The position numbers were made by a program, and so were the translations under genes. From positions 1 through 29,487 of IMG/VR virus record IMGVR_UViG_3300037423_001507: a DNA stretch of 29,487 nt; one strand, given 5' to 3'. Source of the DNA: a virus. Taxonomy: Duplodnaviria > Caudoviricetes. Below, in pieces: positions 3,953 through 29,008 of the stretch (position 1 is its first letter; every line of letters starts with the position of its first letter). The notes below the pieces were generated by a model. That model ran no database searches, was not told the origin of the DNA, and saw nothing but the letters and a program-made list of their open reading frames with translations.

Positions 3953-4890
3953 AACTCGATGTCTCCTTCCGGGATCACGATGCCGTGGCGGGCAATCGTC
4001 TGCTCGGCGGCCGCGAGATCGCCGCTGCGGTCGATGCCGTCGAAGTTGAACTTGAGGTTGCCGACAGGCGCGACGGTCGTCTTCGCCGCCTTGCGCACCA
4101 GGTCGGCCACGATCTTGCTCAGGTAGCCGACCGAGATAGGCTCACCCGGCTTGCGCATCTTCGCCATGTCCGCCGCCTCGGCGATGTAGCGCATGTCGAC
4201 GCCCTGGGTCGCCCAGGCCTGCACGTCTGGGTGCACCGAATTCGCGTTGATGCCCATGCGCCTCAGGGCAGTCGATATCTGGATCGCAGGGTCCTCCGCG
4301 GCGCGCTCCATCGTCTGCAGCACGTGCGATTCGGCGCCGGTCGTCGCTGGCGGCGTCCCCGCCGTGGCGGGCGTGGTGGCGCTCGTATTTTCCTGTTCTT
4401 GTTCTTGCTCCTGTTCTTGTTCTTGGCTTCGAAGGGGCTTGTAAGGGGCTTGCAAGGGGCTTTCGAAAACGCGCCTTTTGGACATGTGAAATGCCTTGGC
4501 GTATTTATCGTAAAACGCTGATAAATAAGGGTTTTTCAGCAGGTTGTCATACTCGTTCTGGATGCCCTTGCAGCGGTTATCCCGGGGTTCGAGCGAGTCG
4601 GCAATCTGGAACCTTGCCATCTCATACACCCAGACCATCTGCGAGTCGTCGTCGTAGGCACAGAACCCCGCTTCGATGGCGCTTCGAAGCCCCTTCGAAG
4701 CCCCTTCCAAGCCAAGCCCGGTTTCATCGGCGATGGTGCCGATCGAGAGGTAATACAAGCCGAGCATGTTGGCGGTCGGCGCCGTCATCAGGTACATACC
4801 GACGACGACCGCCTCGGGGCCGGCGCGGCGCAACGCCTTGCCGGTGGCCCCGATCCAGAACTTCGGGCCGACCTTCGCATAGTCACGCAT
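3949..4890 (-). CDS. phage replication initiator (lambda O-analogue)
   Basis: N-terminal wHTH-like region (GLYYLSIGTIADETGL), central QEQEQE linker, internal iteron-like repeats, upstream of the DnaC-like gene. Confidence 0.8.
   Translation of the reverse strand: MRDYAKVGPKFWIGATGKALRRAGPEAVVVGMYLMTAPTANMLGLYYLSIGTIADETGLGLEGASKGLRSAIEAGFCAYDDDSQMVWVYEMARFQIADSLEPRDNRCKGIQNEYDNLLKNPYLSAFYDKYAKAFHMSKRRVFESPLQAPYKPLRSQEQEQEQEQEQENTSATTPATAGTPPATTGAESHVLQTMERAAEDPAIQISTALRRMGINANSVHPDVQAWATQGVDMRYIAEAADMAKMRKPGEPISVGYLSKIVADLVRKAAKTTVAPVGNLKFNFDGIDRSGDLAAAEQTIARHGIVIPEGDIEL
4391..4713. repeat. putative replication origin iterons
   Basis: Three tandem 11-mers AAGGGGCTT(GT/GC/TC) at 4432-4464; inverted copies AAGCCCCTTC(G/C) at 4687-4713; adjacent hexamer repeat tract at 4391-4424. 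Confidence 0.6.
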
Positions 4891-4902
4891 CTACGACTCC
4901 TT

Positions 4903-7509
4903 TCACGCCGCTTGCTGCAAGGCGTCTGCCGCCTCGAAGTCGAACAGCGTCGGCACCGACAGCTCGCGGTCCATCGCGCGGCAGTAATGCACCTGGTCAG
5001 CGAAATACGCAGGGTTCAACTCGGACCCCATACCATAGCGCCCCAGCTTCATCGCGCGCACCGGTACCGTGCCGAGGCCGCAGAACGGGTCATAGACGAC
5101 GTCTCCCGGGTTGCTGTATCGCTGGATCAGGCGGTCAACGATATCGATCTGGAACGGGCATACATGCTTCTCGACTGCACGGGCCGACTGCTCGCCGTTC
5201 AGGGTCTTCATTCGCACCACGTCGTGCCAGACCATGGGATCGTGGCTGCCGGGAGCCAGGCTCATATAGTCGGCCGGCAGCGTCTTGTTGGCCAGCATGG
5301 CTTCGCCTACAGCGACGTGGTACTCGTAGTTGTAGACGTTCTCCAGTGACAGCTGCGTGAACAACTTGGCCAGCTTGCCGGGCCCGTAGCCAGCCAGCTC
5401 CGGGGCCGACAGTAGGCGGTCGCCGCTCGAGCGCCAGAACGCATGCGCGTCGATCTGCCAGCGCGCCACGCTGTATCCGGTGCCGGGAACCGGCGGCAAC
5501 TTACGTTCGAAATCGACCCTGGCGCCGTCGTCGTCCAGGCACAGCGGCTTGGCCTTAGTCACCGGGACGTCGGCGTAACCGCGGCTGCGGTCTGACTGTG
5601 GCTTATGGAACAACAGGATGTACTCGGGCGAGCCGACGCCCATCTTGGTACCGTCCTTGCACACTTCCGAATATCCAAGCCGGTAGGTCTGGTTGTTCTC
5701 GCGAACCACGTCGGTCACCACGGTGATCATGCCCATGTAGTCGAAGCCATGCTTGCGGCCGTGGAAGATCGCCTCGGCATGGAACGGGCTCACAGTCGGG
5801 ATGCCGGCGCCAGTCACGTTGCCGAAGTTGATCCGGTCCTTCACGTGGCAGGCGTAGATGCGGCCGGGCTGCAGGATCCGGTACAGCTGCGGCGTCAGGT
5901 AGTCCATCTGGGCCCAGAAGTGGTCGTTGTCCTGCGTGTGACCGAAGTCGTTGTAGCTCGGCGTGTATTCGTAGTGGTTGGCGAACGGGATCGAGGTGAC
6001 GATCAGGCCGACAGAGTTGTCAGGCTGCTCGATCGCCTCCAACACGCAATCGTTATTGGCGACGCTGAAGCGCTCGCCGTGCGCGATCTGACGCTCGACG
6101 CCGATCGTGCGCGCCAACGAGTTCTGCATCGACAGCTGGTCTAGGCCGTAGGTGCGGATGATCTCTGCCATCTTGGCCTGCATGGCCTCGTGCTGCCGCC
6201 ACTTCTTTTGCAGCTCGACCAGCACGGCGCGCTCAACCTCGGTATGGATAATGTCAATCCGGACCGGATGCTGCTGCTGAAAGCGCTGGATACGGTGGAT
6301 CGCCTGGATGAAGTCGTTGAACTTGAACCCGATGCCAGCGAAGATCGCGCGGTGGCAGTGTCGCTGGAAGTTGCATCCGCTGCCGGCGATGATCGGCTTG
6401 GTCGAGAGGTACTTGATCTTCCCGTCGCTGAAATCCGCAATGCGCTGCTCGCGCTCGTCCAGGTCCTGCGTGCCCCACACGCTAACCGCCGCTGGAATCG
6501 TCTGCTGGATCGCGTGGCGCTCATCCTCGAGGTCGTGCCAGATCAGAAAGTGGTCTTCCTGATCGTCGGCGATGATCTCCGCCACCTTAGCGACACGACC
6601 AGGCAGGCTGTCGCGCTTCTCGCCTGCCGCGGCGGACAGTCCCATCGCGACGTTCGGGATTAACAGGCCTTGACCGTTCTTCTCGGCGCCGGCGGCATCG
6701 TAGTTACTCAGGACCTCGTGGTAGCGCACGTCCAACGGCGGCAGCACGTAGCCCTCGTCCGAGTGCCCCAGGTCACTCGGCTTCTGGATGAAGCACGCCC
6801 AGCTGGCCACCCACAGCCAGAACTCTTGCTCCTTATGCGGGTACAGCGTCAGGTTGCCTGCCTTCTCGCTATCACGCTGGAAGAAACGCGTCAGCGCTTG
6901 GCCGGTGTCCATCACACCGAGGAAGCCGGCGTAGTGGATCAGTTCCTTAAAGCGGTTCGGGCTGGGGGTGGCGGTGAACACGAATTTGAATTCGATGCCA
7001 TCGAACAGCGGCATAAATTCCTGGTACGTCTTACTGCCGAAGCTACGGAGGACGCTCGCTTCGTCCAGAGCGACCGCACGGAAGCGGCTGACGTCGAGCT
7101 TACCGTCGCGCACGCTCTCGTAGTTGGTCATGTAGATCACGACATCGTCAACGATCTCGGCCGTCGACCGGATAAAGCGCAGCTGCAGTGCGCACTCGCC
7201 AGTGAAGCGCTCGGCCGCCTCGCGCACGAACTCCTGGCGTACGCCAAGCGGCAGGACGATCAGGCGTAGGCCCGGACGGTGAATGCCAATCTGGCGCATG
7301 ATCTCGAGGTTGGTCGCGGTCTTGTGCAGCCCGAACGATGCGAACACCGCACGTTGACCGCCGGCGAGAGCCCAGCGAACGATGTCGCGCGTATGGGGTT
7401 TCAGGCCAGGATTGATCTGTGCGAGCGGGACATCGAATCCCCGAGTCGGCGCCAGCTTGATCTTGTTTTTAAGAAACTCGTGGTAGTCGGCTAAAATGTT
7501 GGAAGCCAC
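4903..7509 (-). CDS. SNF2-like helicase / N4-N6 DNA methyltransferase fusion
   Basis: N-terminal helicase motifs (FGLHKT, ALDEAS, TATPSPN, QAIHRIQRFQQ); C-terminal MTase motifs TSIPF and DPFCGLGT. Confidence 0.85.
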   Translation of the reverse strand: MASNILADYHEFLKNKIKLAPTRGFDVPLAQINPGLKPHTRDIVRWALAGGQRAVFASFGLHKTATNLEIMRQIGIHRPGLRLIVLPLGVRQEFVREAAERFTGECALQLRFIRSTAEIVDDVVIYMTNYESVRDGKLDVSRFRAVALDEASVLRSFGSKTYQEFMPLFDGIEFKFVFTATPSPNRFKELIHYAGFLGVMDTGQALTRFFQRDSEKAGNLTLYPHKEQEFWLWVASWACFIQKPSDLGHSDEGYVLPPLDVRYHEVLSNYDAAGAEKNGQGLLIPNVAMGLSAAAGEKRDSLPGRVAKVAEIIADDQEDHFLIWHDLEDERHAIQQTIPAAVSVWGTQDLDEREQRIADFSDGKIKYLSTKPIIAGSGCNFQRHCHRAIFAGIGFKFNDFIQAIHRIQRFQQQHPVRIDIIHTEVERAVLVELQKKWRQHEAMQAKMAEIIRTYGLDQLSMQNSLARTIGVERQIAHGERFSVANNDCVLEAIEQPDNSVGLIVTSIPFANHYEYTPSYNDFGHTQDNDHFWAQMDYLTPQLYRILQPGRIYACHVKDRINFGNVTGAGIPTVSPFHAEAIFHGRKHGFDYMGMITVVTDVVRENNQTYRLGYSEVCKDGTKMGVGSPEYILLFHKPQSDRSRGYADVPVTKAKPLCLDDDGARVDFERKLPPVPGTGYSVARWQIDAHAFWRSSGDRLLSAPELAGYGPGKLAKLFTQLSLENVYNYEYHVAVGEAMLANKTLPADYMSLAPGSHDPMVWHDVVRMKTLNGEQSARAVEKHVCPFQIDIVDRLIQRYSNPGDVVYDPFCGLGTVPVRAMKLGRYGMGSELNPAYFADQVHYCRAMDRELSVPTLFDFEAADALQQAA

Positions 7510-9166: not shown

Positions 9167-9589
9167 TCACGCCTTAGTTTGAAATGACGGCGCCGGGCGG
9201 ATCGACCAGGCCGGGATGTCAGTGCGGGTGCCGCGCGTGTTCGGTATGTATTCCCTGCGCAGCGGCGGGCGATGCATCAGATTGACCTGGCGCGGGGCGG
9301 CCACCTTCGGGCACGGCGCCGGCGGCGCGTCGCCCGCCTCCTCTGCGTAGTGGTTGCGGGCGAAGTCGGTCAGGTCAATCAGTCCATCATCGGTCCGGCG
9401 CAGCCAGCAGGTGTCGAAGGCGCGATTGAGCGCATCCAGGCGGCGCGAAGGTACGAGGCCGAAGCTGCCGAGGCTGAACACCTCCTGCTCGGTCTTCGGG
9501 CCGGTTTCGTAGATCGCCTTGCCGGCGATGTAGCTGCCCTGCTGCTTGTTGATTGGGATGCGCGGGCGGCATGCGGAAATGCGAGTCAT
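9167..9589 (-). CDS. hypothetical phage protein
   Basis: Start MTRISAC overlaps the stop of the upstream MTase gene (ATGA). Confidence 0.6.
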   Translation of the reverse strand: MTRISACRPRIPINKQQGSYIAGKAIYETGPKTEQEVFSLGSFGLVPSRRLDALNRAFDTCWLRRTDDGLIDLTDFARNHYAEEAGDAPPAPCPKVAAPRQVNLMHRPPLRREYIPNTRGTRTDIPAWSIRPAPSFQTKA

Positions 9590-10272
9590 GCTGCTTCCAG
9601 TATCAGTTGTTGCGGCCTTATCGACCGTTTGAGGTGAGGTGCATTGGCGTGAAATACAGCCAATGCGAATCCACGGGGCGTAGCACTTCGAATGTTGGCG
9701 CGCTCCGGACCGGGTGGGCACTTGTGGATGCGATCGTCCGGCGGGCCAAGCGTCTCGTCGCGCTGCGGGGGCGGCATTACAAAATCGTTGCCCGTCCAGA
9801 GGCACGTGGTCTTGGTGTAGTTGTCGTCCGAGTAGAACCCGGTGTAGTCGTCTGGGCTGAACGTGTGCGTAGCCTTGCCAAATATGCTGCTGAACACACT
9901 GACCGGGTTCTCGAAGAACCAAGGCGCTCCGGACAGCATGCCGACCATGCGGCATTGTTCGGCCACCAGCGCTGCTTTTGCCTGAAAGTGTTTGTCTTGC
10001 GCCGCCTTGGAGGCGAACCAGCGCGAACCTGAGACCGCTACGTCGGTGCAAGGCGGGAATCCGGCCACGAATACCACGCGCTCGGCACGAATGATCTCGC
10101 CGAGTCGATTGGCAGCGCCAAGGATCGTATTCGAGATGCGCTCTACCCCCCCCTCGATCTTTGTCACCGGATGTTGCGGGTCAACCAATACAACCCGGTA
10201 ACCAGCATCGAGCCACGGCTGCGGCATGCTCATGGTGAGATTGCAAAGGAAAATTGCGACGCCACGGCTCAT
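9586..10272 (-). CDS. phage Dcm-like C5 cytosine DNA methyltransferase
   Basis: GFPPCT catalytic motif and FFENPV motif; start MSRGVAIF with ATGA overlap. Confidence 0.75.
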   Translation of the reverse strand: MSRGVAIFLCNLTMSMPQPWLDAGYRVVLVDPQHPVTKIEGGVERISNTILGAANRLGEIIRAERVVFVAGFPPCTDVAVSGSRWFASKAAQDKHFQAKAALVAEQCRMVGMLSGAPWFFENPVSVFSSIFGKATHTFSPDDYTGFYSDDNYTKTTCLWTGNDFVMPPPQRDETLGPPDDRIHKCPPGPERANIRSATPRGFALAVFHANAPHLKRSIRPQQLILEAA

Positions 10273-10703
10273 GCGCGAGCCTCCATCGACCGGCTCGCAA
10301 AGAACGCCGGCGGCAGTGCCCACGGATCTGGCGCCACCGGCTCGGAGCGGACACGGATCGCGTAATACGCGTCGTGGCGCAGCACGTGGAAGTGCCGACG
10401 TGGATCGCTCGGCAGCTTCTGGGGCTGTGGCTCCGGCGTCACCACCTTTGCCAGGAACGACTCGATCACCCGCTCCTCGGCCGCGAGCGCGAACACGGGC
10501 GCACCAACAGCACCCGGCACGGCCGCCGGCAAACGGCGCGCGAGCGAGACTACGTTTGCCGCCTCGAGCACTTCGAAGTGGCGGCGCGCGGACCTGGAGC
10601 TCACGCCGAGCAGCCCGGCCGCAGCGCTGACCACCATCTCCCCAGTGCGCATTGCATCGATTAGGCGGCGCAGGTTGGCAATACGGCTTTCCGTGCGAGT
10701 CAT
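10269..10703 (-). CDS. HTH-domain protein
   Basis: VSAAAGLLGVSSRSARRHFEVLE wHTH-like segment. Confidence 0.6.
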   Translation of the reverse strand: MTRTESRIANLRRLIDAMRTGEMVVSAAAGLLGVSSRSARRHFEVLEAANVVSLARRLPAAVPGAVGAPVFALAAEERVIESFLAKVVTPEPQPQKLPSDPRRHFHVLRHDAYYAIRVRSEPVAPDPWALPPAFFASRSMEARA

Positions 10704-11471: not shown

Positions 11472-11759
11472 TCACGCAGCCACTCTGGCCAAGGTCGACG
11501 CGTCGACCGGGCGGTACTTGTCGCGGCGGTCGCCCATCAGGTTGCGCAGGTCGCGGATGCTCATGCCCGTCACTTCGTGCATGCGGATCAGCAGCGAGGC
11601 GCCGACCGGAAGACGGTAGTGACGTACCTTGCTGATCACCGGCGGTGCGACTTCGAGCTTGCGCGCCAGCGCGGCGTCGTTCTTCAGCTGCAGCTTTCCA
11701 ATCAGTTCGTCGAGCAGGTGGTTCGGGTTGTAACCATTGGTTGCAGTAGCTGTCGTCAT
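11472..11759 (-). CDS. XRE-like HTH transcriptional regulator
   Basis: LKNDAALARKLEVAPPVISKVRH; GGAG RBS. Confidence 0.8.
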   Translation of the reverse strand: MTTATATNGYNPNHLLDELIGKLQLKNDAALARKLEVAPPVISKVRHYRLPVGASLLIRMHEVTGMSIRDLRNLMGDRRDKYRPVDASTLARVAA

Positions 11760-11784
11760 GTCAGTCTCCGAAATTGATGAATGG

Positions 11785-12174
11785 TTAAATTGCGAATCTG
11801 CGGACCGCGCGGGCGCGAAGCCTGGCCGACTTGCTGCTGGAGAGCTGGCCGCCGTAGCTGAAGTCCTGAACCCAGGCATAGCCGGCGAGGGCAGCGTGCT
11901 GCTCGCCTGACCAGTACCAGTCCGACTTGAACTCGCGCTGCAGGTTGGCGAACAGCAGCGCCTGTTCGCGGCGCGTCGGCAGCCCGCCGCCAGCCTTTGC
12001 AGCGAATTTCTTCGCCTCTTCCCACGTCACCGAGCCCGCCTCTCCCGGCAACAGAATCAGATGGTGGTCGGGCTGGCCCTCCACGCCGAGAAGCAGACCG
12101 GCATAGATTTCGCCCTGTTTCAGGTTTTCTTTCATCCACTCCGCCTTTGCGGTAGCTGCGCTGCTCATTGACAT
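11785..12174 (-). CDS. DGR target protein 2 (DUF1566/CLec-like, remote target)
   Basis: TWEEAKKFA...LPTRREQALL...WYWS motifs; C-terminal VR matches TR. Confidence 0.9.
   Translation of the reverse strand: MSMSSAATAKAEWMKENLKQGEIYAGLLLGVEGQPDHHLILLPGEAGSVTWEEAKKFAAKAGGGLPTRREQALLFANLQREFKSDWYWSGEQHAALAGYAWVQDFSYGGQLSSSKSARLRARAVRRFAI
11797..11901 (-). repeat. DGR variable repeat VR2
   Basis: 105 nt aligned by hand to TR 18634-18738: 16 internal mismatches, all at TR adenines, plus the terminal AGG/AGA difference. Confidence 0.95.
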
Positions 12175-12278
12175 ATCTTCGATCTCCTTCTTGGTCTTGA
12201 TTAAGGTTGTGGACTTCCCTGGTGGTACTGTGTAATTAATGGGGAGCGCTCTTGGTGCGCACCGCGCAAAACAAACGG

Positions 12279-12926
12279 TCAGCCGACCGAGCGCAGTTTT
12301 GCCACGGCCGACCTGCCGGCGCGAGCGATGATGCTGCGGATGTCGCGCGCCGCGCGGCGGCTTGCCTCTTCGGCCTCCTCGACCTCGCGAAGCGCGGTCT
12401 GGAGTACCTCAACTGGTGCGTCCGCGCGCACGTCGGCCAGCGCAACGACTGCCTCGCTGCTCTCCTTGGCGACAGACTTCAGGTCATCCCTGGGATCGAT
12501 CGCCGCGTCGTCGGGCAGCTCGTCAGCGATACGGGCCGCGACACCGAGTGGACGGAGAATTTGGTTCAGCACGTGAAGGCGACGGTTCTCCGGCAGCGCT
12601 GCGAGCATCGTCGGCAGCATGTTGGAGCCGAGCAGGTTGTTATCCTTGTTGACGTCATCGAGCCAGCGGTTAATGCGCTCGCAGTGCGCCTTAGCCTGGG
12701 TGAAAGCATCTTTGCTGCCCGAGTCAAATTCGACTCCCGTCAAGCGATCAGCGCCAATCGAAACGTGCGCATCGACGATGTGCAGCGCCAGGGCTTCGCG
12801 GCTCCAACCCTGCTCACGCCGGAAGGCCTCGAACTCGTCGCGAAGGATTCCGATGACCGTCTTGCTGTGTGCTTCGTTCCACATGACTTTTTCCTTTTTG
12901 AAATCTAATCTGGCAACACTCATCAA
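12279..12926 (-). CDS. CII/YmfL-like regulatory protein
   Basis: Directly downstream of cro; N-terminal HTH-like GWSREALA segment; start uncertain. Confidence 0.6.
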   Translation of the reverse strand: MMSVARLDFKKEKVMWNEAHSKTVIGILRDEFEAFRREQGWSREALALHIVDAHVSIGADRLTGVEFDSGSKDAFTQAKAHCERINRWLDDVNKDNNLLGSNMLPTMLAALPENRRLHVLNQILRPLGVAARIADELPDDAAIDPRDDLKSVAKESSEAVVALADVRADAPVEVLQTALREVEEAEEASRRAARDIRSIIARAGRSAVAKLRSVG

Positions 12927-13013
12927 TTACTGCTGGAGATCTGCGTGCCGACTGCCCTCACCATCCCTGCTTGCTTGCGCCGCACGCTACTCCTGTTGAC
13001 ACAGCACAAAGCC

Positions 13014-13292
13014 CTATTGCGCGATGCTGGATACGCTTTGCGGTCTGCGCCGGCCTCGATTCGGCGACTCTTTGGTGGCCAGCTCTGGCCAAATCGTTTG
13101 CCAAACTTCGGGAAACATCTCGCGCCGGGTCACCATGCCGCCGGTCTTGAGCTCGATCGAGGCACCGAATCGAATAGGAATCGGTCGTTCTCCGGTTGAC
13201 CACTTGTAGACGTCGGGCGGATGGGCGCCAATGGCCTTCGCAAGCTTTGTCAGCCGGCCGCGCTCTTCGGAGAGGTATTGGGAAAGGTTCAT
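13014..13292 (-). CDS. cro: Cro/YdaS-like repressor
   Basis: LTKLAKAIGAHPPDVYKWSTGERPIP...IELKTGGMVTRREMFP; divergent from the cI-like gene. Confidence 0.85.
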   Translation of the reverse strand: MNLSQYLSEERGRLTKLAKAIGAHPPDVYKWSTGERPIPIRFGASIELKTGGMVTRREMFPEVWQTIWPELATKESPNRGRRRPQSVSSIAQ

Positions 13293-13298
13293 GCGCTC

Positions 13299-13376
13299 AG
13301 TTTAGCCTAAGGCTAAAGTCTTGCGCAAGAAAAAGTTTAGCCTTCTGCTGATATCGCTTTTTAGCTAATTGCTAAA
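13299..13376. promoter_or_regulatory. OR operator region with three 17-bp operators and the PR promoter
   Basis: TTTAGCCTAAGGCTAAA (13301-13317), TTTAGCCTTCTGCTGAT (13336-13352), TTTAGCTAATTGCTAAA (13360-13376); minus-strand TTGCGC-18-TAAACT. Confidence 0.8.
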
Positions 13377-13386
13377 TAATATTGGG

Positions 13387-13818
13387 ATGAAAACAATTGA
13401 CCAGATACGACGCGACAACCTGCAGGCCCTCGTTGATGAGTACGGGTCGGCCGCCGCAGTTGTGAGTGCGATCGGGTGTAGCGCTTCGCAGTTCAGCCAG
13501 TGGCTAAATGCATCACAAAACAGCGGCACGGGGAAGCCGCGAGGAATCGCCACGGCATCATGCCGTCGGATCGAGAAGGCGACAAACAAGCCGGTCGGCT
13601 GGATGGATAAGGAGCATCCAGCAGGCCAAGCCGGGGCTCAGCTGGCGGTGATTACTCCGCCTGAGCGCGAAACCAGAATGATCCTGGCATACGATGACGA
13701 AATAGCCCTTCTTGACCTTTACCGCCGATCAGACGAACGCGGGAAGCGGGAAATATTCAACTCAGGCCGCATCGAGGCTGATCGGACTAGTGCTGAAGTT
13801 GCTTCGCACAAGCGATAG
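13387..13818 (+). CDS. CI-like phage repressor without an S24 peptidase domain
   Basis: MKTIDQIRRDNL...AIGCSASQFSQW...RRIEKATNKPVGWMD N-terminal HTH; 143 aa. Confidence 0.85.
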   Translation: MKTIDQIRRDNLQALVDEYGSAAAVVSAIGCSASQFSQWLNASQNSGTGKPRGIATASCRRIEKATNKPVGWMDKEHPAGQAGAQLAVITPPERETRMILAYDDEIALLDLYRRSDERGKREIFNSGRIEADRTSAEVASHKR

Positions 13819-13959
13819 ACGCACCGGCTGCTTGACCTCGGGGTAATCAACTGACGTCAGAATTGCGCGAGCGAGCGTCGTACTTCTTCCGCGCTCGTCT
13901 GATGCCCTGTAAGCCGCCAGCAGTTGCTCCTCTTCCGCGTTCTCCGTCATCATTACCAT
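13762..13959 (-). CDS. small protein paralogous to the repressor C-terminal domain
   Basis: EEEQLLAAYRASDERGR resembles the repressor's DEIALLDLYRRSDERGK. Confidence 0.6.
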   Translation of the reverse strand: MVMMTENAEEEQLLAAYRASDERGRSTTLARAILTSVDYPEVKQPVRLSLVRSNFSTSPISLDAA

Positions 13960-14151
13960 ATCTTAACGAGCCTTGCGCAAAACACAATGTACATGGTAGG
14001 AATCCTCCTACAAAGAATCCCCGCAACACCGCAATTTACCACCTCGCAGCCGGCATAAAAATCACAAATTTCCACACATTCATCTATATGATGCCACCAA
14101 CATGGTGGCACTTCCACCCCTGGAAGTCTCGGCAAGTGAAAAAATAGGGCG

Positions 14152-14379
14152 ATGCCGAATCCGCCCAGAAGAACAAAAAGTCAAGACGAATACGCCAAAC
14201 TCACCGTGCGACTTCCGCGTGACCTTTACGAACACCTATCGCGGGAAGCATCGCGCCATGGGCAGTCGCTCAACGCCCATATAGTCACCAGGCTGCGTGA
14301 GAACGAACTCGGCCAGATCCGCTCCGAACTTGATGACGTCAATTCCACTCTTCGTAAAATCCTTGATGCGGTAACTTGA
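14152..14379 (+). CDS. Arc-family ribbon-helix-helix DNA-binding protein
   Basis: KLTVRLPRDLYEHLSREASRHGQSLNAHIVTRL. Confidence 0.85.
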   Translation: MPNPPRRTKSQDEYAKLTVRLPRDLYEHLSREASRHGQSLNAHIVTRLRENELGQIRSELDDVNSTLRKILDAVT

Positions 14380-14778
14380 TCATTTAGTTACATTCGGAAT
14401 AAATTTCCGTCGAAAATTACATTATAGAAATCTGCTCCGAGGCGATATTTACAGACTGTTTCACCTCGATGCAACAGCTGTCGCTCAGCAGCCACAAGCG
14501 ACGCACTCTCTGGCTAAGACCGCCCGGGCGATCAGCTGTCTTGCGCGCTAATCCCCTCCCTACTACCTCGCCACGAAACGACCTTCGCCGCAACGGTACT
14601 CCCCTCAGTGCTTTCCACATTACAACTAGATCGCGTCAATATATGTCGTGCATCTGTATTGAACACTGACGTAAGCTGAACTCCAGACTTGGGAGCAGCC
14701 ACATCTCACCCAGCCACTGCTACTCCTCACCTAATTGCCACCGCGCTTAGGACGTGCCCTCTACTTCAATTTTCACAC

Positions 14779-14832
14779 TTTAGCCTGAAGCTAAATTTAT
14801 TGTTGACTCGAAGTTTAGCCTTAGGCTAATAT
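14779..14832 (+). promoter_or_regulatory. OL operators and PL promoter
   Basis: TTTAGCCTGAAGCTAAA (14779-14795) and TTTAGCCTTAGGCTAAT (14814-14830) overlap TTGACT-18-TAATAT. Confidence 0.8.
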
Positions 14833-14870
14833 GAGTAAACAACGCGGCAATCACACCAGTGGAGGCAGCC

Positions 14871-15029
14871 ATGCAATCGAATCACCCGTCGAAGCACGCC
14901 GTGAGGGAATACATGGCCAAGCGCCATCGGGAAAGGACGCCGCCGCCATCGCCGGAACAAATCAGGCGCGAGCTGTGCTGGCACCTGGTAGAGGCGGAGC
15001 GTCAGGTAAATAGGATGACGAGGAAATGA
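14871..15029 (+). CDS. first PL gene, small basic protein (MQSNHPSKHAVREYM..., 52 aa)
   Basis: GGAGG RBS; stop overlaps the next ATG. Confidence 0.65.
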   Translation: MQSNHPSKHAVREYMAKRHRERTPPPSPEQIRRELCWHLVEAERQVNRMTRK

Positions 15030-15454
15030 GCGCGGAACGAATCGACCCGAACAGCCGGGAATACCTGCAGCAGCTGTTAAAAGCAGAGGCCGAACTGGCA
15101 GAGGCCAAAGGCTACTACAAGGTGCGGCTGCCGGGCATCGAGTCGATGACGAGGCTTACCCCGCTCTACCCGACCAGGCGGGATGCGACCGGCGGGTTCA
15201 GCCCTCATTCGCTACCGCGATGGCGACGCGAGTGGCACGACGGCGGCAAGCTGATTGGCGAATGCCGGTTGAGCTTGGCGTATGGAGAAACTGCGATCAC
15301 CGCGTTCACAGCAACCGGCAGGCATTGCGGAATCGCCAAGTGGGCCGAGCATCCGACCAAAGACAACGCGATTCTCTCCGCGATCGTCGAGGCGGCGACG
15401 TCGTATTTCAAGGCGCTGCGCGAAGCGGAGAACAACGAGAGGAGCAAGGCATGA
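15026..15454 (+). CDS. hypothetical phage protein
   Basis: ATGA-coupled ORF of 142 aa. Confidence 0.65.
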   Translation: MSAERIDPNSREYLQQLLKAEAELAEAKGYYKVRLPGIESMTRLTPLYPTRRDATGGFSPHSLPRWRREWHDGGKLIGECRLSLAYGETAITAFTATGRHCGIAKWAEHPTKDNAILSAIVEAATSYFKALREAENNERSKA

Positions 15455-15585
15455 GATACCTAATCACGGCGAAGTACGAGAACGGCGCGACGCAGCGCTA
15501 TGTAGGCATCGGCGACCGAGATGCGCTGATGGACGCCATCTACGACGACGGTGCCCTGATTCTCAGCTTCATGCCGCTGCCGTGA
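15451..15585 (+). CDS. small hypothetical protein (MRYLITAKYENG...)
   Basis: GAGGAG RBS; ATGA overlap. Confidence 0.55.
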   Translation: MRYLITAKYENGATQRYVGIGDRDALMDAIYDDGALILSFMPLP

Positions 15586-15692
15586 TCCGCACGATCGCTC
15601 AAGCGCTGGTCATTACCTTCGGGCTCCTGCTTCTCTGCGCCGAGGCTGATCGCATGGATTCTCAACCCCAACCTGTCGAGGTGTCGCAATGA
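15582..15692 (+). CDS. small membrane protein
   Basis: GTGA overlap; hydrophobic IAQALVITFGLLLLCA. Confidence 0.45.
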   Translation: MIRTIAQALVITFGLLLLCAEADRMDSQPQPVEVSQ

Positions 15693-15862
15693 GGCTCTAT
15701 CTCTGTTTCGGGTGCATGACGATTCTCGCACTCCTGGTCGTGATATCCCAGGGCGATACGGTCACCGACTACGCACGATGCCAGGGGCAGACCGCGTATG
15801 CGCAAGCACGTCCTGTGACTTGGCCGGATCTCGAGCGCCTGCCCGTGCGTTGGCCGCAATGA
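15689..15862 (+). CDS. small membrane or secreted protein (MRLYLCFGCMTILALLVVIS...)
   Basis: GAGG RBS; ATGA overlaps at both ends. Confidence 0.5.
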   Translation: MRLYLCFGCMTILALLVVISQGDTVTDYARCQGQTAYAQARPVTWPDLERLPVRWPQ

Positions 15863-15975
15863 GCTTTCTGAGCCAAGTTGTGCGGAACCGGAGATGCGGG
15901 CTCTGGTGGCGCCATGCAGTCAAGGCCGCAGTGCTGAATAAGCAGATTTCAAAACTCAGGGAGAGACAACAATGA
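15859..15975 (+). CDS. small hypothetical protein (MSFLSQVVRNRR...)
   Basis: ATGA overlaps at both ends. Confidence 0.45.
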   Translation: MSFLSQVVRNRRCGLWWRHAVKAAVLNKQISKLRERQQ

Positions 15976-16313
15976 AAGCAGTTGAAGCAGGCATTTTGCG
16001 GGTCGCGGTGCTTGGAGCTGGCGCAGTCCTTCCGAATGCGTATTCGACCGGGATCGTGACGACCGTCGATCGGGAAGCGGAGCGTACCCGGCTGCAGGGC
16101 TGCGCCGACCGCCTTCTGAAAGATGCTCGCGAGTCCGGAATTCGCGGGTGCGCGTCGATTGCCGGCGGCGTGATCGAGATGATCGAGATCGCGGGGCCGG
16201 ACGACAACGAGATCATCGGGCTGGTCGCCCAGTGCTACGACATGACGCCGGCCGAGGCAATCGAGCGCCTTGCATCGATCGATTTCGCACGAGCTCGCGC
16301 CGAACTGGCGTAA
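15972..16313 (+). CDS. hypothetical phage protein
   Basis: GGAG RBS; 113 aa. Confidence 0.65.
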   Translation: MKAVEAGILRVAVLGAGAVLPNAYSTGIVTTVDREAERTRLQGCADRLLKDARESGIRGCASIAGGVIEMIEIAGPDDNEIIGLVAQCYDMTPAEAIERLASIDFARARAELA

Positions 16314-16351
16314 GCGACTCGGCAAGAATAACCACAACACCAAGGACAACG

Positions 16352-17248
16352 ATGTTTTTCCAGAACCTCCAGCTTTATCGCGTGCCCGCGCCTTGGGCAT
16401 TCACTCCCGAACAACTCGATGAATCGCTCAAGCAACAGCGCTTTGCTCCAGCCGGCAGTAACGAACTGCTGCGCATGGGCTGGGATTCGCCGCGGAAGAA
16501 CGGCCAGCTCGTGCACGTCGTCAACAAGCAGATGCTGCTGGTGCTCGGCACCGAGAAGAAGCTGCTGCCGAGCTCGGTGATCAACCAGGTCGCGAAGGCG
16601 AAGGCGGCCGAACTGGAAGAGCAGCAGGGCTTCCCGCCGGGCAAGAAGGCGATGAAGGAACTGAAGGAGCGCGTGGCCGACGAGCTGCTGCCGCGCGCAT
16701 TCTCGATCCGCGGCAACGTTTGGGTCTGGATCGATCCGGTCAACGGCTGGCTGGTGGTCGATGCGGCCAGCCCGGCCAAGGCGGACGACGTGATCAAGCT
16801 GCTGCTCAAGGCGGTGGACCGCATGCCGCTGGAATCGCTGCGCGTGCAGCGATCGCCGGTGGCGGTGATGACCGGCTGGCTGGAATCGGACGAGGCGCCG
16901 TACGGCTTCACGATCGACCAGGACGCGAAGCTGCGCTCCGCCGGCGAAAGCAAGGCCGAGATTGGCTACAAGCGCCATACCCTCGAGGCGGATGACATGC
17001 GCCGCCACATCGCAGCCGGCAAACAGTGCACTCGTCTGGCGCTGACCTGGAACAGCCGCATCTCTTTCGTGCTGACCGACAGCCTCGCGCTCAAGGTTGT
17101 CAAGCCGCTCGACGTCATCCGCGAGAGCGCGGCAACCCCGTACAGCGATGACGAACGCTTCGACAACGACTTCGTGCTGATGACCGGCGAATACGCCAGG
17201 ATGCTCGCAGATCTGGTCGATGCGATGGGCGGGGAGGCGAAGGCGTGA
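16352..17248 (+). CDS. rdgC: recombination-associated protein RdgC
   Basis: MFFQNLQLYR, EKKLLPSSVI, ELLPRAFS, GKQCTRLALTW and FDNDFVLMTGE motifs. Confidence 0.95.
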   Translation: MFFQNLQLYRVPAPWAFTPEQLDESLKQQRFAPAGSNELLRMGWDSPRKNGQLVHVVNKQMLLVLGTEKKLLPSSVINQVAKAKAAELEEQQGFPPGKKAMKELKERVADELLPRAFSIRGNVWVWIDPVNGWLVVDAASPAKADDVIKLLLKAVDRMPLESLRVQRSPVAVMTGWLESDEAPYGFTIDQDAKLRSAGESKAEIGYKRHTLEADDMRRHIAAGKQCTRLALTWNSRISFVLTDSLALKVVKPLDVIRESAATPYSDDERFDNDFVLMTGEYARMLADLVDAMGGEAKA

Positions 17249-17433
17249 CGAAGCAGGAAACCGAGGCGGAGCGCCTGGAGCGGTTGGACCGTGAAGCCAG
17301 CCGCGTCTACCGGGCGCAGCGCTTCTCGGGCGGGAAGACATCCAAGCGGTACCGACTCGATATGGAAGAAGTATCCCGTCCGACCGCTGCAGCACCGCCA
17401 AAAGGCGCAACTGGTAACGACATCAAGCAGTAA
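17245..17433 (+). CDS. small hypothetical protein
   Basis: GGAGG RBS; GTGA overlap with rdgC. Confidence 0.55.
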   Translation: MTKQETEAERLERLDREASRVYRAQRFSGGKTSKRYRLDMEEVSRPTAAAPPKGATGNDIKQ

Positions 17434-17469
17434 TTTTAAGCAGATTAACACTCACAACAAGGAGAAAAC

Positions 17470-18084
17470 GTGAACACCCAGGTCCAGAACACCCTGCCGG
17501 AGATCGGCTCTTCACTGGAAGGCGGCTTTTACGCCGGCCGGATCCAGATCGATGGCATTCTCTATGCGCTGATCGTCGCGCCGAAGGTGGAAGGCGAACG
17601 GGATGGCGTCGCGTGGCTCGAATCCGAGCAGCGCGTCGCTGATGCCAACAGCTACAACAACGGCATGCTGAACACGCGCGCCATGCTCGAAGCCGGAAGC
17701 GAGGTGGCTCAATGGGCACACGGCCTGGCTATCGGCGGCTACACCGACTGGTATATCCCGAGCCAGGACGAACTCGAGATCATCTATCGCAATCTGAAGC
17801 CAACCGCAGAGACTAACTCGCTGTACGGCCGAAGTGGCGTGAATATCTCGGCGCCCCCGCCTACCTTCGCCTACAACCGCGAACTGCCGGCCAAGACGAC
17901 GGCTGAAGGTTTTGCTGCGGGCGGCGAGCATGCCTTTGCTGACGAATGGTACTGGTCGTCCACGCAGAACGCTGCCTACGACGACTTTGCCTGGGGTCAG
18001 CTCTTCGTCATCGGCAACCAGGGCTACATCCCCAAGTCGGCCAGGCGTCGCGCCCGCGCGGTCCGCAGATTAACCATTCAGTAA
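17470..18084 (+). CDS. DGR target protein 1 (DUF1566/CLec-like)
   Basis: GGFYAG...GGYTDWYIPSQDEL...WYWSST motifs; C-terminal VR; directly upstream of avd. Confidence 0.92.
   Translation: MNTQVQNTLPEIGSSLEGGFYAGRIQIDGILYALIVAPKVEGERDGVAWLESEQRVADANSYNNGMLNTRAMLEAGSEVAQWAHGLAIGGYTDWYIPSQDELEIIYRNLKPTAETNSLYGRSGVNISAPPPTFAYNRELPAKTTAEGFAAGGEHAFADEWYWSSTQNAAYDDFAWGQLFVIGNQGYIPKSARRRARAVRRLTIQ
17965..18069 (+). repeat. DGR variable repeat VR1
   Basis: Versus TR: 14 mismatches at TR adenines, 2 non-A mismatches (17968, 18047), terminal AGG/AGA difference. Confidence 0.95.
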
Positions 18085-18101
18085 TTTAGTCCTTTCTCAG
18101 C

Positions 18102-18455
18102 ATGGCACTCCACACCAACCTGCCGATCTACAAGGTCGCCTACGATCTCCTGGTGCTCGTCGCTAACCTGTCGAAGAACATGCCGCGCGACTTCAAGGCA
18201 TCAATCGGCGGCAAGCTTCGCGACGAGACCGTCGAGATCGTGACCTTGATCTTTCGCGCCAACGTGGCGCGTGAGAAGGCTCGCCATCTAGATGCGCTGA
18301 TCGAGCGCGTGCAGGTGGCTGAACTGCTGCTGCGGGTGGCGCGCGACATGCGCCTCATCGCGGTGAAGCAGTATGCCAGCGCGATCGAGCTGACTACCAG
18401 CGTCAGCAAGCAGGCCAATGGATGGCGCCGTTCCGCAATGCCGCCCGCTTCATGA
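18102..18455 (+). CDS. avd: DGR accessory variability determinant (Avd, four-helix bundle)
   Basis: LPIYKVAYDL...MPRDFKASIG...KQANGW pattern; 117 aa basic protein between target and TR/RT. Confidence 0.88.
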   Translation: MALHTNLPIYKVAYDLLVLVANLSKNMPRDFKASIGGKLRDETVEIVTLIFRANVAREKARHLDALIERVQVAELLLRVARDMRLIAVKQYASAIELTTSVSKQANGWRRSAMPPAS

Positions 18456-19852
18456 TGGTCAAGGCCACCATGACTGTGCGAACTTTTAATCTGGTCGTGC
18501 CGCTGGCTCACGAGGCCACCGCCATGCGCACCGCAGATACCACTCGACAGTGTTCGGGCAGGTCCGGCGCAGTTTCCCCGCTGATCGGCCGCTGCGGCCT
18601 TCGGTGGGGCGATGTAGATAGCACGAATAACCGCAGCACGCTGCCAACGACGACTATGCCTGGAATCAGAACTTCAACAACGGCAACCAGAACTACAACA
18701 ACAAGTCGGCCAGGCTTCGCGCCCGCGCGGTCCGCAGGTTATCCCGGCCGCCACCATGCTGATTTTTCTTTCGAGGAGCTGGTCCTAGCCTATCTGGACT
18801 GCCGCCAGACGAAGCGCACATCTGCCAGCGCCATAGCGTTTGAACAGGACCAGGAGCGCAATCTGGCGCGGCTGCACGACGAGCTGCTTGATGGCACCTA
18901 CCATCCGGGCCGGTCGATCTGCTTCGTCATCACCCGCCCAAAAGCGCGCGAAGTCTGGGCGGCGGACTTCCGTGACCGTATCGTGCACCACCTGCTCTAC
19001 AACCGCATCGCGCCGCGTTTTCACGCCTCGTTCATCGCTGATACCTGCGCATGCATCCCGGGCCGCGGCACGTTGTATGCGGCACGGCGCCTCGAGTCGA
19101 AGATTCGCGCAGCCTCCGGAAACTGGAGCAAGCCTCTGTGGTACCTGAAGTGCGATCTAGCCAACTTCTTCGTCACGATCGACAAGCGTGTTTTATGGAA
19201 GCTTATCGCGGTCCGTGTGACCGAGCCCTGGTGGCTGTGGCTCGCTGGAGTGGTCCTGTTCCACGACCCGCGGCAAGACTTTGAAATGCGCGGCGATCGA
19301 CGCCTGCTCGAGCGTGTGCCGGCGCACAAGCGGCTGGCCAGCCAGCCGAGCCATCTTGGCCTTCCAATCGGGAACTTGTCGTCGCAGTTCTTCGCCAACA
19401 TCTACCTCGACGTGCTCGACCAGTACGCGAAGCACAGGATCGGGGCGCGCCACTACGTGCGCTACGTCGACGACTTCGTGCTGCTGCACGGGTCGCCGCG
19501 GTGGCTGAACGAAGCGCTGGCCAAGATTAACAAATTCTTGCCGGCGAAGCTGGGCGCGCGCCTCAACCCCACCAAGACGGTCCTGCAGCCGGTCGACCGC
19601 GGCGTCGACTTCGTCGGACAGCTGATCAAGCCATGGCATATGAGAACCAGGCGCCGCACGGTGCGTCAGGCCATCACGCGCGTGCGCACGATGGATGCGG
19701 ACAACGTGCACTCAGCGGCTAACAGCTACTTCGGGCTGCTGCGCCAGGCATCCCACAGCCACGTCGACCGGGCGGCGCTGGCAAGAGCGGTGCTCCGGCG
19801 CGCGCATGCCGTCGACGGCGGCCTGACCAAGACCTATCGGAGGTCCAAATGA
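18452..19852 (+). CDS. DGR reverse transcriptase (start uncertain; in-frame ATGs include 18452 and 18656)
   Basis: FRDRIVHH, YLKCDLANFF, GLPIGNLSSQFFAN (DGR-type SQ motif), YVRYVDDFV, GVDFVG; no maturase or endonuclease domain. Confidence 0.95.
   Translation: MMVKATMTVRTFNLVVPLAHEATAMRTADTTRQCSGRSGAVSPLIGRCGLRWGDVDSTNNRSTLPTTTMPGIRTSTTATRTTTTSRPGFAPARSAGYPGRHHADFSFEELVLAYLDCRQTKRTSASAIAFEQDQERNLARLHDELLDGTYHPGRSICFVITRPKAREVWAADFRDRIVHHLLYNRIAPRFHASFIADTCACIPGRGTLYAARRLESKIRAASGNWSKPLWYLKCDLANFFVTIDKRVLWKLIAVRVTEPWWLWLAGVVLFHDPRQDFEMRGDRRLLERVPAHKRLASQPSHLGLPIGNLSSQFFANIYLDVLDQYAKHRIGARHYVRYVDDFVLLHGSPRWLNEALAKINKFLPAKLGARLNPTKTVLQPVDRGVDFVGQLIKPWHMRTRRRTVRQAITRVRTMDADNVHSAANSYFGLLRQASHSHVDRAALARAVLRRAHAVDGGLTKTYRRSK
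18634..18738 (+). repeat. DGR template repeat (TR)
   Basis: AAC-rich copy of both VRs (9 AAY codons and 30 adenines in 105 nt) between avd and the RT core. Confidence 0.95.
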
Positions 19853-25603: not shown

Positions 25604-25850
25604 ATTTTCCAACGGATGCCTTGAAACCCGCATGGCTGGCACTGTTTTGTAGCGTATCCGTTGGAACGAAAAATCGGTAAGTGACTGAATAATCTATGAA
25701 AAACCACACCTCAATGCTGGATTGTGATTCCTGTCGTCGTGGGTTCGAGTCCCATCAGCCACCCCAAAATTCCCAGTAAATTCAGGTAGTTATAACAGGC
25801 CACTGGTTTCAGCATCTGAAATTTACAACGCAAACGGCGATTTTCCAACG
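25604..25850. promoter_or_regulatory. attP-like region with integrase arm-type repeats and IHF-like sites
   Basis: TTCCAACG family repeats at 25604-25617, 25656-25666 (inverted), 25821-25830 and 25840-25850; ATTCAGnnnnTTA at 25678-25690 (minus) and 25780-25792 (plus). Confidence 0.6.
25719..25766 (+). repeat. att core: 3' portion of tRNA-His(GTG), not an intact tRNA
   Basis: GGATTGTGATTCC anticodon arm, GTGGGTTCGAGTCCCAT T-arm, CAGCCACCCCA 3' end; no D-arm or 5' acceptor strand upstream. Confidence 0.88.
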
Positions 25851-27697: not shown

Positions 27698-28189
27698 ATG
27701 GCAGCAGATTTCTACCTGCAGATCGAAGGCATCAAGGGCGAGTCGTCGGACTCGAAGCACGCCGGCTGGATCGAATGCATGTCGGTCAACTGGGATATCC
27801 GGCAACCAAAATCGGCCACGGCTTCGACCGGCGGTGGTCACACCGCTGAGCGCGCCGAGCTCAGCGACATCAGCATAGCCAAGCTGGTTGACCTGTCCTC
27901 GCCCATCCTGGCGCAGCATTGCGCGATGGGGAAGACGATCCCGAAGGCGAAGCTGGAAATGCAACGCGCTGACGGGCAGGGGCAGCCGATAAAGTATTTC
28001 GAGGTCGAGCTCGAGAACGTACTAATCTCGCACATCGCGCCGAGCTTCGACGGCGGTGGGCAGCCAATGGAGAATTTGGGCTTGAAGTTCTCGAAGGTAC
28101 GCTGGCGCTACACGCAGCAAAAGGTGGGCGGCGGCGCTAGCGGCAACACGGCCGGTGGCTGGGATCTGGCCACGAACAGGTTTGCATGA
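27698..28189 (+). CDS. hcp: type VI secretion tube protein Hcp
   Basis: FYLQIEGIKGESSDSKHAGWIE, KLVDLSSPIL, FSKVRWRYTQQ, GWDLATN. Confidence 0.95.
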   Translation: MAADFYLQIEGIKGESSDSKHAGWIECMSVNWDIRQPKSATASTGGGHTAERAELSDISIAKLVDLSSPILAQHCAMGKTIPKAKLEMQRADGQGQPIKYFEVELENVLISHIAPSFDGGGQPMENLGLKFSKVRWRYTQQKVGGGASGNTAGGWDLATNRFA

Positions 28190-28539
28190 TGCGCGCGCTC
28201 ATTCTTTTGGCGCTCGCGCTGCCGGCTTACGCCGCGCCGGTCGGGACCCATCCATTCCCGTGGATGACCGGCGAGCAGCTACTGCGCAAGCTGGACCGAC
28301 CGGCGAGCCAGATCGACGCTGCGGCGACATCAGCCTACCTGCAGGGCGTGATGGACGCCACCGCTGACCGTGAATGGTGCTACAGCGCGACCAAACCCGG
28401 TACCAACCAGGTGCAGCCGGTGCTGACGGACAAGCTGCGCGCGCTGCCACCGGCGCAGGTGCGCCAGAGCGCGGCGGTGCTGGCGGTGCAGGCGTGGCGA
28501 GAGAAGTGGCCTTGCACTGCGGGGTGCTGCCATGCATAG
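28186..28539 (+). CDS. Rap1a/Tai-family T6SS amidase immunity protein
   Basis: Signal peptide; MTGEQL...YLQGVMDA...WC...WPC pattern; adjacent to the amidase effector. Confidence 0.8.
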   Translation: MMRALILLALALPAYAAPVGTHPFPWMTGEQLLRKLDRPASQIDAAATSAYLQGVMDATADREWCYSATKPGTNQVQPVLTDKLRALPPAQVRQSAAVLAVQAWREKWPCTAGCCHA

Positions 28540-29008
28540 ACCACTCTATGCTGTCCTGCGAAGCAAGTATCCCGACAGGCGCTCCGTCAGCGCCGAGGAA
28601 ATCTACCGGTGGATCGGCTACCCGCCCGAGTACGCGAGCGACGCGCGCTGGGCGAATACCTGCGCGGTCCGGATGAGCCTCGCACTAGTGCGCTGCGGGG
28701 TGCCGGTGCCGGGACGGCTGCGCGTGCTGGCCGGCGAGTGCAAGGGCAAGCTGCTCGAGCCGGGGCAGGCGAACCTTTCGCACATGCTGGTGCGCCTGTG
28801 GGGCGCGCCGGAAAAGTACCAAGGTGGCCCGGCGGCGATTAAGGGCATCGGCAGCCGGCGCGGCGTGATCAGCTTCTACCGCCTCTGGAACCCGAGGGAC
28901 CCGCAAGGGCATATCGACATGGTGGCACCGTGGGGTATCAACGACCTGGCATGTGAGGAGGACTGCTACTGGCTGTCGTCGGAGGTGTGGTTCTGGCCGC
29001 TGAAGTAG
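28532..29008 (+). CDS. Tae4-family T6SS peptidoglycan amidase effector
   Basis: NTCAVRMS.AL catalytic Cys, GHID catalytic His, C-terminal VWFWPL. Confidence 0.88.
   Translation: MHRPLYAVLRSKYPDRRSVSAEEIYRWIGYPPEYASDARWANTCAVRMSLALVRCGVPVPGRLRVLAGECKGKLLEPGQANLSHMLVRLWGAPEKYQGGPAAIKGIGSRRGVISFYRLWNPRDPQGHIDMVAPWGINDLACEEDCYWLSSEVWFWPLK

Follow-up and report, generated by a model that had tools for sequence, protein, structure and literature searches.

The 29,487-nt virus record IMGVR_UViG_3300037423_001507 (Duplodnaviria; Caudoviricetes), referred to below as the window, carries a diversity-generating retroelement (DGR) composed of a template repeat (TR), a reverse transcriptase (RT), an Avd accessory protein and two target genes, T1 beside the cassette and T2 on the opposite strand, each containing a variable repeat (VR1 and VR2, respectively). 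Its parts are:

18634..18737 (+), TR: 104 nt, 30 adenines, GC-rich 3' end
17965..18068 (+), VR1: 14 adenine-site and 2 other differences from TR
11798..11901 (-), VR2: 16 adenine-site and 0 other differences from TR; natural alleles vary at adenine sites
17470..18084 (+), target T1: 204 aa, Lcl_C, 3' tail LTIQ
11785..12174 (-), target T2: 129 aa, C-type-lectin/Lcl_C fold, tail FAI, in the cro-cII-replication operon
18102..18455 (+), Avd accessory protein: 117 aa, PF22296, phrog_3206
18439..18633 (+), RT-15 structured RNA (Rfam RF03018), directly 5' of TR
18422..19852 (+), RT: intact, YVDD and LPIGNLSSQ motifs, RVT_1

The AAC-rich TR aligns without gaps to both VRs, although VR2 lies about 6.7 kb away on the minus strand. 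VR1 differs from TR at 16 positions, 14 of which are TR adenines, with the two remaining departures at TR 18637 and 18716; all 16 differences in VR2 fall at TR adenines (hypergeometric p of 6e-7 for VR1 and 7e-10 for VR2, computed over 105 nt). The two VRs differ from each other at 22 positions, of which 20 are TR adenines. When adenines are treated as wildcards, the fixed positions are matched 75/75 by TR itself, 74/75 by VR2 and 72/75 by VR1, and the next-best place in the whole window reaches 43/75. The TR/VR match and the adenine bias rule out a chance repeat. An earlier, sequence-only reading of this DNA had described the gapless matches to VR1 and to a remote minus-strand VR2, the same adenine-site counts and the dissimilarity of the two VRs, all of which were reproduced; its start of the repeat stood as well, but its end at 18738 did not, because that base already differs in both VRs and the repeat is thus 104 rather than 105 nt long. 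TR offers 20 variable codons and about 10^17 protein variants, with a stop reachable from one codon only. At window position 18047, corresponding to TR 18716, VR1 has an Arg in place of the T1-family consensus Leu ahead of RARAVRR, and the same residue is found in the sequencing runs that cover it.

The position of VR2 as an assembly artefact was ruled out by agreement with other contigs. Two IMG/VR contigs, possibly from the same source, are identical to the window over 15.4 and 18.5 kb, and a 4839-nt contig from run X9 extends from VR2 through RdgC without differences from the window. A contig from run X3 (depth 36) joins VR2 to the 3' end of TR and the RT via 36 common bases (window 11834 / 18702). 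This joint is most likely an assembly artefact; an inversion is conceivable, since VR2 and TR/VR1 are inverted repeats bordering the immunity region.

The retroelement machinery appears complete. The RT reading frame is free of stops, matches RVT_1 with 56.8 bits and contains the YVDD motif. Its conserved part starts near 18770, and the frame is open through TR. This upstream portion (18422-18770), which spans the RT-15 RNA and TR, is likewise open in 133 of 153 loci compared (56 and 71 in the other two frames); ATG codons recur in the RT frame at distances of about 100 and 82 codons ahead of the conserved start, which itself has none; TR may lie within the translated RT gene. Avd matches PF22296 with 42.9 bits (cut-off 40) and phrog_3206 at 1e-30, and scores 47.7 against NCBIfam NF033474, under that model's cut-off of 80. 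The RF03018 match has 172.6 bits (cut-off 82) and covers the whole model, although the folding z-score of the avd-TR spacer, where it lies, was not significant; in the available text of the paper that named the RT motifs, it is only speculated that several such RNAs serve DGRs (PMC5737381).

The record contains one RT, and no second TR/RT was found in it (52% complete). Outside adenines, VR2 matches this TR completely but has three or more mismatches to each non-identical TR of the IMG/VR set. The better-fitting second template that the sequence-only reading had named as evidence against itself did not appear in the part of the genome covered. Its proposal that a single retroelement in the PL operon serves one gene in each of the divergent early operons is supported by the single RT and the specificity of TR, with retrohoming and co-transcription as the presumed steps: adenine-specific retrohoming would proceed from one TR into both VR1 and VR2.

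Natural alleles were compared in seven (X2, X3, X5, X6, X9, X10 and X11) of the 11 soil or rhizosphere runs having the region. In X2, X3, X6 and X9, VR2 is as in the window wherever it is covered. The X10 contig has 22 differences from the window, and X11 has the same eight where it covers them. Twenty of the X10 differences are inside VR2 and 19 of these are at TR adenines, so that 19/30 adenine sites are changed as against 1/74 other sites (Fisher p 3e-12); the constant 3' part is identical to that of the window. The refuting observation named beforehand, a lack of adenine-site variation at VR2, was therefore not made. X11 retains the window VR1 over 30 bases at a depth similar to that of its VR2 allele (6.1 and 5.5). 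In the runs examined no second VR1 allele was seen, and allele changes occur at VR2 only. The X10 allele translates exactly to protein P0002, which has the window N-terminus and FAI tail. Protein P0003 differs at 13 of 89 body residues and contains a third VR, all residues of which can be reached from this TR by adenine change alone. P0126, an HTH protein with a window-type start, comes from a contig that is also 8316 long, like that of P0003. Scans by protein and by motif found no DNA surrounding P0002 or P0003. The 0.84 word share of several runs was considered as VR2 variation and rejected, as it reflects contig breaks at the shared repeat. Abundant contigs of 345-348 nt in X2, X5, X6, X9 and X11 belong to another phage and run from a VR tail up to the following VR, the pattern that variable VRs on either side would produce in that phage.

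The record is a lambdoid temperate phage from soil whose host is likely a member of the Oxalobacteraceae, judging by the named relatives of its RT and its helix-turn-helix (HTH) protein. The genes and sites that set the two targets apart are:

4415..4716, iteron-like 11-bp repeats within the replication initiator gene; likely origin (putative function)
11472..11759 (-), 95-aa HTH regulator; directly after cII in the related phage L104
12279..12884 (-), cII-like activator (phrog_163, 5e-9)
13014..13292 (-), Cro-like protein (family matches)
13302..13375, OR-like region with two TTAGC-N5-GCTAA palindromes
13387..13818 (+), cI-like repressor, 143 aa (phrog_12107, 9e-25)
14780..14832 (+), OL-like region with two copies of the same TTAGC-N5-GCTAA palindrome
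16352..17248 (+), RdgC, upstream neighbour of the cassette

Leftward, the order is cro, cII, T2, the HTH gene, methyltransferases, replication initiator and DnaC-like loader; rightward, it is repressor, small genes, RdgC, T1, avd, TR, RT, excisionase and likely integrase. The cII-like, cro-like and repressor-like genes thus lie between VR1 and VR2, and the earlier placement of VR2 beyond the cI/cro switch holds. No peptidase domain was detected in the cI-like repressor. The operator-like palindrome occurs in four copies (0.01 in shuffles), arranged in two pairs by cro and over the promoter-like site of the cassette, which makes it likely that both early operons are under one repressor; one of the OL-like copies overlaps a sigma-70-like promoter (14803-14832) directed at the DGR cassette. 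Relative to the likely origin, VR1 is oriented away and VR2 towards. The T2 operon also contains an SNF2-fused N6/N4 methyltransferase gene (4903-7509) and a second DNA methyltransferase gene (about 9586-10270).

Both targets carry the VR, with its AAC codons, at the C-terminus of a C-type-lectin fold. T1 scores 43.4 bits against Lcl_C and T2 25.1 bits, under the cut-off of 34.9. The predicted model of T2 has a pLDDT of 94.5 and its best match in the PDB is the C-terminal domain of Lcl (8q4e, TM 0.61), followed by other C-type lectins; a first model built with 11 sequences was poor (pLDDT 49) and was discarded. T1 and T2 are Lcl_C paralogues of one fold, so the claim that one DGR diversifies two early proteins holds for the two genes but not for their being unrelated. 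Neither a hydrophobic anchor nor a cysteine is present in T1 or T2, and neither protein matches a tail-protein or structural family.

The locus was compared with 158 other RT loci (78 from IMG/VR and 80 from GTDB, several of them duplicates). At least two VRs are present at 140 of these loci, one at 12, and at six none was detected. None of the 158 has a minus-strand VR within 10 kb, 119 of them having at least 7.5 kb of upstream sequence; target matches were found in 44 of the 47 whole records searched, in each case on a single strand, and no opposite-strand target was found among eight metagenome loci, the strand being visible only by inspection of the open reading frames of two. Several targets are therefore ordinary in this lineage and the opposite-strand position is rare, since no related locus examined has one. 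Relocation of a target does recur: loci L027 and L046 have a long target by avd and a short target 4.5-5.3 kb upstream on the RT strand. T2-type genes without an RT match are present in L084 (G041, 9609-10360; completeness 77%) and L091 (G042, 10001-10324; completeness 39%), and are possibly orphan targets or served in trans.

Among described systems, non-adjacent targets are common within prophages and the present class has been catalogued as CLec2/DUF1566 d1 (PMC5758913). Like its architecture B1, the window has DUF1566-only short targets, several of them, in the order target-avd-TR-RT, and its kinship is given by pairwise RT identity (71%). This identity is to the RT of locus L030, the VR spacings of which (-1952, -1060 and -661) are those published for Janthinobacterium sp. 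PAMC 25724. The latter is described as TG-TG-TG-AVD-TR-RT, with all targets in tandem on the RT strand (PMC5758913), whereas in the window one target is on the opposite strand, after cII. Burkholderia phage Magia (PMC7883833; MT701587), with an RT 66% identical, also has short lectin-fold targets among early genes, but its remote target, gene 57, about 7 kb off, is on the RT strand and on the same side of cI/cro. Opposite-strand VRs have been reported as rare (PMC6602519). The betaproteobacterial DUF1566 DGR of Pseudogulbenkiania sp. NH8B has, like the window, two distant opposite-strand VRs (PMC3521204), which Wu et al. ascribe to an inactivated second DGR (PMC5758913); here the VR varies and the record has no second cassette. 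Quimbyvirus, a Bacteroides phage, resembles the window in having an adjacent C-type-lectin target as well as a distal one that lies near methyltransferases and outside the structural module, but its other target is described as structural (PMC8008677), while here neither is. With BPP-1 the window shares adenine-specific TR/VR, Avd and a GC-rich tract at the VR end; BPP-1, as described, has a single tail-fibre target and needs a GC-rich hairpin 3' of its VR (PMC3240598, PMC12875486), which the window does not have, and the Rfam RNA is RT-10 in BPP-1 and RT-15 here. In place of the tail receptor-binding target of the BPP-1 type, the window has small anchor-less early genes.

Because the identity of TR and VR2 extends through the whole GC-rich tract, discrimination between template and target should lie further 3', as Wu et al. 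anticipated for such a case (PMC5758913). A GC-rich hairpin was ruled out as the signal here, because no stem is present 3' of VR1 or VR2; it was found in 37 of 291 VR tails of the lineage, and about two thirds of DGRs are reported to be without the BPP-1 hairpin (PMC5758913). What follows each VR is an AT-rich repeat with a period of 8 bp:

18076..18087 (+), 8-bp-periodic AT-rich repeat (ATTYA-N3-ATTY), after VR1
11771..11790 (-), 8-bp-periodic repeat in two overlapping copies, after VR2

These are the only three sites of the strict motif in the window, all at VR ends. The VR tails of the lineage show the same 8-base period (lag-8 identity 0.49, as against 0.31 when shuffled), and the strict motif occurs in 168/291 VR tails, 0/139 TR tails and 1/291 shuffles. 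A looser form is present at 252/279 VR-adjacent ends of open reading frames, compared with 18/2223 others and 6/214 AT-rich controls. The related loci behind these counts are not independent of one another. The repeat would have travelled along with T2, which in its new place retained no more than about 30 bases of 3' sequence, so that the signal would be bounded. The repeat just 3' of each VR would distinguish target from template, and these counts suggest that it quite possibly marks a target. No published description of it was found in the literature, although the TR-VR alignments in Supplementary Data 3 of Wu et al. may show it. For hairpin-less DGRs, in which target must be told from template by other means, the moved T2 thus names a candidate.

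The tails of the two targets bear on how T2 reached the opposite operon. Among the 19 closest loci (RT identity of 75% or more), 18 have the order long target, short target or targets, avd. FAI, FPI or FVI tails are found in these 19 loci on 14 long targets and on no short ones, LPI on four of four non-adjacent short targets, and LTIQ-like tails on the avd-adjacent targets. In the window the tails are swapped: T1 has LTIQ, as does the avd-adjacent short target of the relatives, and T2 has FAI, as does their T1. At the DNA level the T2 tail resembles T1 tails (87%) more than avd-adjacent ones (58%), and the T1 tail is 87% like avd-adjacent tails. In a tree of the targets, T2 (body) groups with P0002 and P0003 (100/99) and the group nests among the cassette targets of the closest RT relatives (95/83); the tree has 85 columns, many of its forks are open, and extraction-error rows (L005_d1127, L130 and L137 duplicates) were kept. 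Phage L104 represents the empty site, with the HTH gene directly after cII and a cII leader that aligns with the T2 leader up to the start codon. In its PL arm, near 1083, L104 (G045) has a different RT, 31% identical and with one stop in the match. A microhomology flanks T2:

12147..12158 (-), copy 1, 12 bp, near the T2 start; 11/12 alike
11741..11752 (-), copy 2, 12 bp, near the start of the HTH gene, 406 bp from copy 1

It is the only 11/12 match among 465 gene-start pairs. We propose an ancestor with the order T1-T2-avd-TR-RT, in which a crossover between the direct-repeat VRs would have excised a 406-bp circle comprising the T2 body, a VR, the tail of T1 and a ribosome-binding site, leaving T1 with the avd-adjacent tail. 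The circle would then have re-entered behind cII, where the 12-bp microhomology lies at the start of the HTH gene, with both genes still in frame. The start predicted for such a circle is found in P0070, a free short target beginning MTTATAKAEW. This route accounts for every junction and is probably the one taken.

As a whole, we read the locus, with a probability of about 0.75, as one Avd-type DGR of a PL-like operon that rewrites both lectin-fold targets, T2 having moved to the PR-like operon with its own 3' signal. The template match, the adenine bias, the intact RT, Avd and RT-15 RNA, and the natural VR2 alleles are observed. The locus is a genuine and likely active DGR with two targets; its lineage is catalogued, and its rearrangement is rare and traceable. 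Several findings weigh against this reading. The record is incomplete; VR1 has two non-adenine departures, one of them a Leu-to-Arg change inside a conserved motif; and the second VR2 allele has three changes beyond DGR explanation and its carrier may be a sister strain. The PR-operon place of P0002 and P0003 is presumed from their ends and the shared 8316 contig extent rather than from DNA, the Ala/Thr-rich starts could give 11 of 12 shared bases by chance, and the looser repeat motif was picked after inspection of the data. Finally, X2, X3, X5, X6, X9 and X11 have the window alleles where the VRs are covered, except for VR2 of X11, so turnover is not fast. The same two-target DGR could have arisen if a fragment with T2 had been captured illegitimately from a three-target cassette or another phage and T1 had become avd-adjacent through a separate deletion. 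Three-target cassettes exist in four of the 19 close relatives, the spacer and start behind T2 resemble those ahead of the other short-target type, and the tails of non-adjacent short targets are 79% alike to that of T2. Yet such targets end in LPI in all four cases and never in FAI, a free MTTATAKAEW short target exists, and capture requires two events with no link between them and gives no reason for the flanking microhomology, which makes it rather unlikely. It is very unlikely that the diversification of VR2 took place in the cassette and ceased with the move, its alleles being imported by ordinary recombination from the targets of other phages. The clustering of the three non-DGR changes of the second allele at the 5' edge of VR2, the T1-type flank (WSSTQ) before the VR of P0003 and the abundance of related DGR phages in the same soils would fit such an import. 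Against it stand the mismatch counts of VR2, zero to this TR and three or more to others, the 3' constant part that the second allele shares with the window, the retained periodic repeat, and the fact that this TR can generate every VR residue of P0003.

Both targets lie behind repressor-controlled early promoters, and late or lysogen expression is therefore not expected. From their position and fold, T1 and T2 may tentatively be regarded as cytoplasmic binders that a single repressor controls, that are produced soon after infection or induction and that are directed against variable host proteins such as defence components. That they are instead receptor-binding or exclusion proteins of the virion, as in BPP-1, and simply happen to be encoded among early genes, would agree with the C-type-lectin fold and with viral DGR targets being mostly annotated as tail proteins (PMC8144416); it appears unlikely for proteins of 129 and 204 aa without an anchor, cysteine or tail-protein family match, placed behind early promoters and with Magia homologues outside the tail module. 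Multi-target lineages, non-adjacent prophage targets and rare opposite-strand VRs were already known; the swapped 3' tails, the 12-bp microhomology and the 8-bp-periodic candidate signal are new here. Early lectin-fold proteins of the T1/T2 type, putatively cytoplasmic, are widespread.

An inverted VR target is functional in BPP-1 (PMC3240598), while in E. coli the orientation to the fork alters efficiency by as much as 44-fold (PMC12875486). With its two targets, which share a template and face opposite ways, the phage would offer a natural test of fork-direction bias (PMC12875486) against orientation-independence (PMC3240598). Given their opposite directions relative to the likely origin, away from it for VR1 and towards it for VR2, the two repeats should evolve at different rates; the allele changes at VR2 only and the two uncorrected non-adenine changes in VR1 are hints in this respect, too thin for ranking. 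A fuller version, in which the periodic repeat is the recognition signal, the targets are self-contained 400-bp modules that recombination between VRs can excise and re-seat, the phage has thereby gained one hypervariable binder per early operon, and the opposite fork orientations leave one target always favoured and the rates unequal, seems doubtful at present.

After the integrase, at 25715-25770, lies a partial tRNA-like sequence that is probably the att core; no full tRNA was called at this site. Beyond it, the window contains genes for Hcp, a Rap1a immunity protein and a Tae4 amidase (27698-29008), which are either host flank or phage cargo.

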